NCBI RefSeq assembly: GCF_057098645.1
Contig: NZ_JBXSPU010000003.1
Length of the DNA stretch: 64,000 nt
DNA from: a plasmid
Direction: 5' to 3' (one strand)
Shown here: positions 28,601-31,600 of the stretch, in pieces
Numbering within the stretch: position 1 is the first letter of the stretch
Layout of the letters: every line of letters begins with the position of its first letter
Made by a program: the position numbers

Positions 28601-31600
28601 TGGGTATTAAACGGCTTTCTCATAAAAAAACTGAACGCTTAAAAACTGAATTTATCGGGCTGATTGATACTGTACGGCCAGCACTAAACGACAGTAATAA
28701 ACTCACCGAATTAATTTTCGACGGACAACATTCCAATTTATTTACGAACATCAGCAGCACTTCCATCACAAAGACAACGGAAAGTGTAAAGATCACTCTA
28801 GATGAAGCAAAACTCCAGCTTTTATTAAGCCTTCTGAATGATGAAAATACTGCTATCATCATTCCAAAATCTAAGGTTACAGAACTGCATGAAATTCGTG
28901 ACCTGTTAACAAGTGAGTAGAATGCTAAGGACCGTTTATGGACAAGATTGCACAGTTTACTGTAATTAATACTTATAACGATCTACTTATTACAAAAGGC
29001 ACACTCGATCGCAACATTGAAGAGATCAAGGCTGGAAAGCGTTTTGATCATTTTGAAGAAGGGCACGATCAATACGTACAGAAGGTAACTGACGCTTTAC
29101 AGCTCGTGGAGGCTCGACTGGAGAACCTTAAAAAATGAAACATTCTCTTTTTTTTACTCAGGATGGTTATTTACTGCCATCATCCGTAAAGCCTATCTAC
29201 GGTAAAGATGGACACTATTACGCCGTTATCACCCGTGAGTGTTTTGAATGCGGAGGGACTGGAAAGATTGCGAACGCCGTCTGTGTGACATGCAATGGCT
29301 CCAAAACGTCTCCAGCCACAGAGGAAAAGCTGGTACTGAAAGAGTGCATTGAATTCCTTGAAACTATCCCGGAACTTCGCTGCAATCCCGATCTTGAAGC
29401 CTGGAAACGTAGGCACAGCGAGCAGTTAGCATTGCTGCAAGCTGACAATTCTAAGTTTGCAGCAAGCATTGCACAGCAGTTAAACAACAATCTCTTTTTA
29501 ACAGTCCGTCAGTTGGAGTCTTTCTACTCGACATACCAGCCTGTTTCTAAAGCTTTTTCAGAAAACGCCGGTTTTCCAATTGAACATTCTTTCAACATTG
29601 GTGATGTAGTTAGTTTTGATATTATTTTGGGTATCCGGAATTTCTGGTTGATAAAATGTCAAAGATGTAAAGAAGAAAATCTTTCTCAGCGGATTATCTG
29701 ATTGATCCTCTTCAGCCTACTCTACTGCCAATTTTCTGTTTCCACCTTCGCCTGAGTCTTCATAGCGATGCTGACTAGGGAGGACAGCGAGAGCTGGGCA
29801 AGCGTCAAAGCGGTTCTGGTTCATGCGCAATCCGGACACCTGCACAACATTCCTCTTGTAAGAAACCGATCAAATTCTCTAGGTGCCCATACTCGGGTAT
29901 ACAGACAATCGTGCGGCTATGTTTCTCCTGCCGGATCAGCCCTACCTTGGCCATGCGCGCAAGGTGATGTGATAGCGTCGAAGCAGGAATACCCAGCCCC
30001 TTCTGGATATCTCCGACCGAAGCCCCATCATGGCCAGCTTTGACCAGAAAGCGGAACACGGACAGTCGGTGACTATTCCCTAGCTCAGCTAAGCTGGCTG
30101 CAACCTTTTCGTGATCCATAGCACGCCCCAATAATTCGATGTTTCTAGAATTATAGTTGACAGGTCGGATAAACGCAAGTAGGCTGCGTACATCATTTCG
30201 ATAAAACTAGAAATATAGGAGTAATATTGAATGTCACCTCAACTCCAAGACGCTCTAGGCATGTTCGCCTTTCTCGCTATCGAGCTATCGGTTTTATTCA
30301 TTGGCATTAGCTTGCTGGTCGGAGTTCTTCAACGTCACATCCCACCATCCAAGGTGGAAGCGTTACTGACTTCCAGTGGGAAGCGAGGCTATTTTCTTGC
30401 TGCTGGTTTAGGAGCTATAACGCCCTTCTGTAGTTGCTCGACTATCCCCATGTTGAAAGGGTTGATTCAGGCACGGGCCGGTTTTGGGCCGATGATGGTG
30501 TTTCTTTTCACATCTCCGTTGCTGAATCCTATCGTCGTCGGCCTGCTGGTTGCCACGTTTGGATGGACACTTACTGCTATCTATGTGCTCGCCGCTTTGG
30601 TGGTCGCGGTAGGTGCCGGATGGCTGCTTCACACGCTTGGCTTCGAGCGTTATGTGCGCCGGACGGCGACACAAGAGAGCAGTGGATGTAGTTCATCAGC
30701 AAGCCCGTGCAGTGCTACATCGACCGCATCGAGTTGCGGCACCAACAGCTGCGACACCACTCCGAAGACGGCTTCTTGCGGGGCTGATAGGAAGACAACA
30801 GTCTCTACGTCTAGCGAATGCTGTGACAGTCAACCCACTGTCACGGTTAAGAAAGAAGGGAAGTACAATGGTGTGTGGCGGGAAGCTTAGTCGGACTTTA
30901 TCGATGTGTTGCCTTACCTGCTCATCGCTATTGCGATTGGCAGCGTGATCTATGGTTTCATGCCCACTGACTTATTGGAGCAGTATGCAGGCCCAGATAA
31001 TCCCTTTGCCATTCCAGTTGCCGCTGTCATCGGCGTGCCGTTGTATATTCGCGCTGAAGCCGTCATACCTCTGGCAGCGGCTCTGATGGCCAAAGGCGTG
31101 GGTGCCGGGACGGTGCTTGCGTTGATCATCGGCAGTGCCGGAGCCAGCCTGACTGAGCTCATTCTGTTGCGCTCTTTGTTCACGCTGAAGCTTTTAGCGG
31201 CGTTTTTAGCAGTCATTTTTGCTATGGCGATGATTGCCGGTTACGCCACCTACCTGTTTTTCTGATCAAGGCGGGAGATGATTAATTCGTTAAGCCTTCC
31301 TGGTTACCAGTTGGTGGATTCTGATGAGCAGAATGAAGACATACATTTTCGGCTTGAAGCACCTACACCAGTAGCCTGCGAGGGGTGCTGCGTGCAGGGT
31401 GAGTTCGTGCGGTTCGGCAAGCGTGATGTTCCCTATCGTGACCTGCCCATCCACGGCAAGCGGGTCACCCTCTGGGTAGTTCGTCGCCGGTACACCTGCC
31501 GGGCCTGCAAGACCACCTTCAGGCCCCAGCTACCGGAGATGGTGGACGGCTTCCGCATGACGCTGCGGTTGCATGAGTACGTGGAGAAGGAAGCCTTCAA

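Follow-up and report, generated by a model that had tools for sequence, protein, structure and literature searches.

A nonsense codon in the ISPst2-borne yraQ permease of an IncHI1 plasmid lineage: a likely recent pseudogene

ISPst2, an element of the ISL3 family, is 2985 bp long and has genes for an ArsR regulator and a putative permease as its passengers (PMC6305408). A derivative in which the transposase gene tnpA is split by an insert with the lincosamide-resistance gene lnu(G) has been published under the name ISEc89 (PMC8615141). The literature assigns no function to the passenger genes (PMC6947025). Among the families to which they are related, the ArsP family includes exporters of trivalent organoarsenicals (PMC6205960, PMC7176098), and SpArsR, an ArsR protein with only a vicinal cysteine pair, is reported to respond to methylarsenite and not to arsenite (PMC11868830).

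Here we analyse a copy of this element in a 64,000-nucleotide stretch of plasmid DNA (the window), in which the permease reading frame is interrupted by a TAG codon. An earlier note, made from the sequence of the window, had ascribed the interruption to a recent nonsense mutation, a sequencing error or a genuinely split transporter. Neither ISPst2 nor its lnu(G) derivative nor the internal stop is new: each is already present in the literature or in RefSeq annotation, and no new type of system is involved. The reading that we favour, with a probability of roughly 0.92, is that the yraQ permease of ISPst2 has become a recent, likely neutral pseudogene in an IncHI1 lineage through a TGG to TAG change at codon 220.

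The ISPst2 element and its insertion site

The permease sits in a 4097-bp element (29629-33725; Table 1). The 24-bp left and right inverted repeats of this element are identical to those of ISPst2a/b, it is flanked by an 8-bp direct repeat as target-site duplication, and it has the same arsR, permease (yraQ) and tnpA genes. Without the insert it measures 2986 bp, compared with the published 2985 bp. Excision of the element together with one copy of ATTATTTT restores exactly the uninterrupted IncHI1A sequence of pSA20030575.1. The target is an IncHI1 backbone gene annotated as 'zinc finger-like domain-containing protein' (29135-29701 and from 33726 onward), which is intact at the empty site in pSA20030575.1. 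As described for ISEc89 in Enterobacteriaceae, lnu(G) lies within tnpA. The ISL3 transposase gene is split at 31630/32742 by this insert, and the element is therefore probably no longer autonomous.

Table 1. Features of the ISPst2 insertion and its passenger genes, in coordinates of the window.
Feature	Position	Strand	Basis or remark
Target-site duplication, left copy ATTATTTT (8 bp)	29621..29628		Empty-site reconstruction
ISPst2 left inverted repeat GGGTATCCGGAATTTCTGGTTGAT	29629..29652	+	Identical to published ISPst2a/b IRL (PMC6305408)
arsR passenger, 104 aa, ArsR/SmtB family, C-terminal Cys91-Cys92	29805..30119	-	Pfam HTH_20/HTH_5
arsR/permease divergent intergenic region	30120..30230		AGGAG and two repeat copies, read from sequence
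Permease (yraQ / ArsP_1 family), first half and linker, codons 1-219	30231..30887	+	ORF list, translation, Pfam
TPFCSCS motif, codons 64-70	30420..30440	+	Most conserved stretch of the family; helix break
Linker, low-complexity, predicted disordered, codons 141-210	30651..30860	+	Composition; AF2 model
Premature TAG	30888..30890	+	Base 30889 is A; G in intact copies (TGG, Trp220)
Permease second half, codons 221-344 and TGA	30891..31265	+	Pfam ArsP_1 profile positions 174-292
tnpA 5′ fragment, ISL3-family transposase	31278..31630	+	Pfam Zn_ribbon_ISL3; RefSeq pseudogene; BLAST breakpoints against intact pYR1 copy
lnu(G) insert, 1111 bp, 31% GC	31631..32741	+	lnu(G) CDS 31810-32613; described as ISEc89 (PMC8615141)
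tnpA 3′ fragment	32742..33667	+	DDE_Tnp_ISL3
ISPst2 right inverted repeat, reverse complement GGGTATACGGATTTAATGGTTGAT	33702..33725	-	Identical to published IRR
Target-site duplication, right copy ATTATTTT	33726..33733		Matches left copy

Origin and distribution of the stop codon

The ORF list and straight translation give a reading frame of 219 amino acids (30231-30890) that is closed by the TAG. The same frame then stays open to a TGA at 31263-31265, and the TAG is the sole in-frame stop between 30231 and 31263. The downstream ORF, from a GTG at 30906 to this TGA, is in frame with the first. Both parts score well above the gathering cut-off of 32.3 bits for Pfam PF03773 (ArsP_1, 'predicted permease'; TCDB family 2.A.119): the N-terminal part aligns to profile positions 2-147 with 101.5 bits, the C-terminal part to positions 174-292 of 294 with 84.5 bits, so that the two together span positions 2-292 and belong to this family by profile score. 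The earlier description of two permease ORFs in one frame, separated by a TAG, thus holds. A further feature of PF03773 proteins, namely a single polypeptide with two halves and a variable hydrophilic loop, is seen in the intact alleles and in every full-length homologue, but is interrupted in the window by the TAG at codon 220.

Searches for the 1140-bp permease region gave matches in 113 plasmids of PLSDB and, among 5426 complete E. coli genomes, in 84; identity was nearly always at least 99%. For comparison, one copy was taken from E. coli KV7 plasmid I and two from Yersinia ruckeri pYR1, and these were aligned with the window. Over the 1140 bp, KV7 and the window are one base apart, at 30889, where the window has A and the KV7 and pYR1 copies have G; in this alignment a G>A transition converts TGG (Trp220) to TAG. 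The permease of KV7 and pYR1 is annotated as one intact 344-aa protein, and the allele of pYPE10-190k-tetX4, which is identical to that of the window, is labelled by RefSeq/PGAP as a permease, pseudo, with an internal stop. The stop is therefore found where near-identical, functional-looking copies have a sense codon, as in a nonsense pseudogene.

The affected residue is strongly conserved. Trp220 is invariant in 24-25 homologues of 66-94% identity and is kept in 90 of 92 close matches, while a wider sample (28-55% identity) has Trp or another hydrophobic residue at this position. A comparison with homologues, which the earlier note had proposed as a check, showed them to be continuous at the position of the stop, and none to be split in two: the 24 close homologues that were aligned are all uninterrupted proteins with lengths of 297-380 aa, and each of about 90 more distant representatives is a single polypeptide spanning both halves. 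A recent nonsense mutation, one of the three possibilities raised there, is accordingly what the data favour: the window departs by one G>A change from intact copies that are identical elsewhere, and it does so at a Trp that close homologues share without exception.

To see how far the allele extends, a 58-nt probe centred on the stop was run against PLSDB plasmids. It matched 57 records exactly and 55 with one mismatch; every copy checked at this codon has TGG. A second probe, of 120 nt and spanning the left junction of the element, had full coverage in 57 records, and these are the same 57 accessions as those with the TAG allele. Since the two sets coincide, we take the TAG to be real, to have arisen once and to mark one IncHI1 plasmid lineage. 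The hosts of the 57 plasmids are E. coli, E. fergusonii, Klebsiella, Enterobacter, Citrobacter, Morganella, Leclercia and Salmonella; most of these plasmids have a size of about 190 kb and derive from pigs, pork, poultry, pets or people. The window itself is collinear with the tet(X4) plasmid pYPE10-190k-tetX4 (99.8% over 48.4 kb). Near the edge of this collinear stretch lies a tandem array of a 52-bp unit (12433-13679; 23.6 copies, 87% matches).

These distributions also bear on whether the stop could be a sequencing or assembly error, with the real plasmid having TGG. A single-base difference is the type of change that an error can make, and nothing further speaks for this explanation. Against it, the identical TAG is present in the 57 plasmid records, which represent many different laboratories, hosts and platforms, and about 16 of 40 complete E. 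coli genome records that were sampled have it as well. Because the TAG recurs across independent assemblies, sequencing error is refuted, and we give it a negligible probability.

The relative order of events can be read from KV7. There the same lnu(G)-bearing element occupies a different site; its sequence shows 3 differences in 4102 bp, and the permease is intact. The nonsense mutation therefore postdates the lnu(G) insertion.

Permease architecture and the consequence of the stop

To place the stop in the protein, we used an AF2 model made from an alignment of 106 diverse homologues (28-88% identity; pLDDT 85.6, pTM 0.81); with a shallower alignment of 25 sequences, pLDDT was only 43 and the model was unusable. 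The model predicts helices within residues 3-141 and 215-343, with a disordered linker between them. The second half begins with helix 215-242, and residue 220 lies within it. The TPFCSCS motif in the first half (conserved among the 106 sequences as T 98, P 105, F 101, C 103, S 92, C 93 and S 100) coincides with a predicted helix break at residues 64-67. Comparable breaks are predicted in the second half at 272-274 and 305-306, where the conserved helix-break motifs are PLYIR and GSAGAS. When the N-terminal half was compared with the C-terminal half by hhalign, E was only 0.035 over 110 columns, which agrees with the published internal repeat and is not independent proof of it. A profile search of PDB sequences found no solved structure related to the permease, and a literature search for the TPFCSCS motif found nothing. 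Two cysteines of ArsP are reportedly required for MAs(III) transport, a point that we did not use as evidence.

The linker is the least conserved part of the permease. Its 70 residues (aa 141-210) include 16 Ser, 13 Thr and 7 Cys, and the Cys/Ser/Thr-rich segment that the earlier note had pointed out ahead of the stop is indeed present as coding sequence, corresponding to residues S150-T203 (30678-30839) and containing all 7 Cys. In close homologues the linker has 23-106 aa and 1-12 Cys, and in some of them the loop is nearly absent; in the wider sample it has 17-126 aa and 0-14 Cys, with 31% of sequences free of Cys and 35% having four or more. In the AF2 model, pLDDT is below 50 over residues 160-196, and the chain is predicted to be disordered from about 150 to 205. 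As the linker is hypervariable and predicted to be disordered, it is best regarded as an accessory feature and not as the core of the transport site. Capture of a soft metal(loid) is a plausible, putative role for its cysteines.

In the reading that we favour, a single G>A change in an IncHI1 plasmid lineage, which the alignment shows directly, turned the Trp220 codon into TAG, and translation would end after 219 residues. The product would retain the first half and the disordered Cys-rich linker, and would lack the entire second half, beginning with the helix that bears Trp220. Since conserved helix-break motifs occur in both halves, the truncated permease is most likely inactive; going by the model, the 219-aa product would most likely miss half of the presumed transport site. 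The second half would now be untranslated or at best re-initiated. Because both halves are undamaged except for one base, loss of function is beyond proof by sequence alone. The allele would then be a recent, probably neutral pseudogene that was spread by a successful resistance plasmid.

The undamaged state of both halves leads to the question of whether the two ORFs could instead encode a working transporter of two polypeptides, consisting of the 219-aa N-terminal half and a C-terminal half re-initiated at GTG 30906. The stop does fall at the junction of the linker and the second half, the in-frame GTG follows it by 15 nt, some ArsP-family members are single-repeat proteins according to the TCDB authors (PMC7176098), and the TAG allele persists in 57 plasmids without further decay. 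However, only one base separates the TAG allele from intact alleles, and a start at the GTG would remove Trp220, Asp222 and Phe223, three residues that do not vary within the close clade. Initiation signals likewise argue against a restart: AGGAG lies 5-9 nt ahead of the permease ATG (Shine-Dalgarno duplex energy -6.8 kcal/mol), whereas no Shine-Dalgarno sequence precedes the in-frame restarts GTG 30906 and TTG 30909 (-3.2 kcal/mol, versus -6.8 at the true start). Hitch-hiking on one clonal plasmid lineage accounts for the persistence of the allele, and full-length homologues, close and distant, are all single chains. We therefore consider the split transporter of the earlier note very improbable.

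Even less probable, to a degree comparable with sequencing error, is that the TAG is decoded, by programmed read-through, pyrrolysine or a suppressor tRNA, to give a full-length protein. Enterobacteria do show low-level, near-cognate read-through of UAG. Yet all other copies examined encode Trp by TGG, and the TAG allele is limited to one recent lineage. The Enterobacterales hosts are not known to have Pyl machinery, and the T that follows the stop is not a notably leaky context. A recent pseudogene thus remains the preferred reading. It follows for this lineage that the stop codon can serve as a marker of one IncHI1 multiresistance plasmid family, and that the cargo permease of ISPst2 is dispensable in it.

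The intact arsR-permease module and its known relatives

What the permease does where it is intact can be approached through its regulator and its gene contexts. The earlier note had named an ArsR gene as neighbour of the permease, and an ArsR/SmtB gene does lie divergently next to it (Table 1). Its RefSeq product is ArsR/SmtB family transcription factor, and its score of 51.2 bits against the NCBIfam HTH_metalloreg model is slightly below the cut-off of 55. In the region between the two genes, the sequence TTCGAT-N4-CTAGAA(A/T)TATAG occurs twice (30137-30158 and 30197-30218), and from their sequence these copies are candidate ArsR operators. A promoter and terminator scan gave no signal above chance. 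The two divergent genes, about 110 nt apart, are kept together in six of seven chromosomal contexts (Marinobacter, Xenorhabdus, Shewanella, Sedimenticola, Microbulbifer and Chromohalobacter). Because other neighbours are not conserved, the pair appears to be a self-contained two-gene unit.

One of these contexts contains a further gene of potential relevance. In Xenorhabdus nematophila (L009:5103-6185), an ArsM-like SAM methyltransferase is encoded directly downstream of the pair; the NCBIfam model that fits it best, arsenite methyltransferase, gives 152.6 bits, below the cut-off of 263. Among the seven chromosomal contexts, such a gene is adjacent in Xenorhabdus only. Besides arsR and this ArsM-like gene, no other ars genes were found in ISPst2 or in the seven contexts.

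The closest PDB relative of the regulator is AfArsR (6J05, E=6e-9), which has a type 2 As(III) site of three C-terminal cysteines. The As(III) ligands Cys95-Cys96 of AfArsR align with Cys91-Cys92 here, whereas its third ligand, Cys102, has no counterpart. With the third Cys missing, a two-Cys pattern therefore remains, as reported for the MAs(III)-selective SpArsR (PMC11868830). Cys91-Cys92 is invariant in two chromosomal orthologues. The alignment of the two cysteine pairs lends some support to the predicted metalloid link that the permease would have through its ArsR.

Together with the family of the permease, the ArsR cysteine pattern points to (organo)arsenicals. These compounds served as feed additives in the livestock settings concerned. 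ISPst2 has taken the arsR-permease pair to very different bacteria, namely Pseudomonas, Arthrobacter, Agrobacterium, Vibrio and Enterobacterales from pigs and poultry. Most likely, we infer, the intact permease is under ArsR control and exports a thiol-reactive metal(loid), for which a trivalent (organo)arsenical is the leading candidate. A more specific proposal is that the pair forms a sensor-exporter cassette for trivalent organoarsenicals, made up of an MAs(III)-type two-Cys ArsR, an ArsP-family exporter and a substrate-capturing Cys-rich linker. We regard this as rather unlikely, if worth stating: were it true, W220* would mark the loss of an organoarsenical function in one IncHI1 plasmid lineage.

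General NCBIfam models do not place the permease in a narrower family. The 'arsenic efflux protein' model reaches 32 bits (cut-off 100), and membership of the SaoE efflux transporter family (NF040736) was rejected at 89 bits against a cut-off of 325. The top NCBIfam model, over residues 22-340, is the SO_0444 Cu/Zn efflux family (NF033936) of Shewanella oneidensis. Like the permease, SO_0444 is a PF03773-type membrane protein under a metal-responsive regulator, but this regulator is of the ZntR/MerR type there and of the ArsR type here. Because 125.6 bits falls below the cut-off of 300, the permease is not a member of the SO_0444 family, and this assignment was rejected. That a Cu/Zn family and not an arsenic one scores best nevertheless speaks against a firm arsenical assignment.

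By family and description, the permease shares several properties with ArsP of Campylobacter jejuni, an efflux permease for trivalent organoarsenicals (TCDB 2.A.119; Pfam clan of ArsP_1/ArsP_2): both belong to PF03773, have a variable hydrophilic loop between two halves, contain a conserved Cys-x-Cys motif in the first of these and are encoded beside an ArsR-type gene. ISPst2 has no other ars genes. Compared with ISPst2 and ISEc89 as described, the permease of the lineage represented by the window additionally carries W220*.
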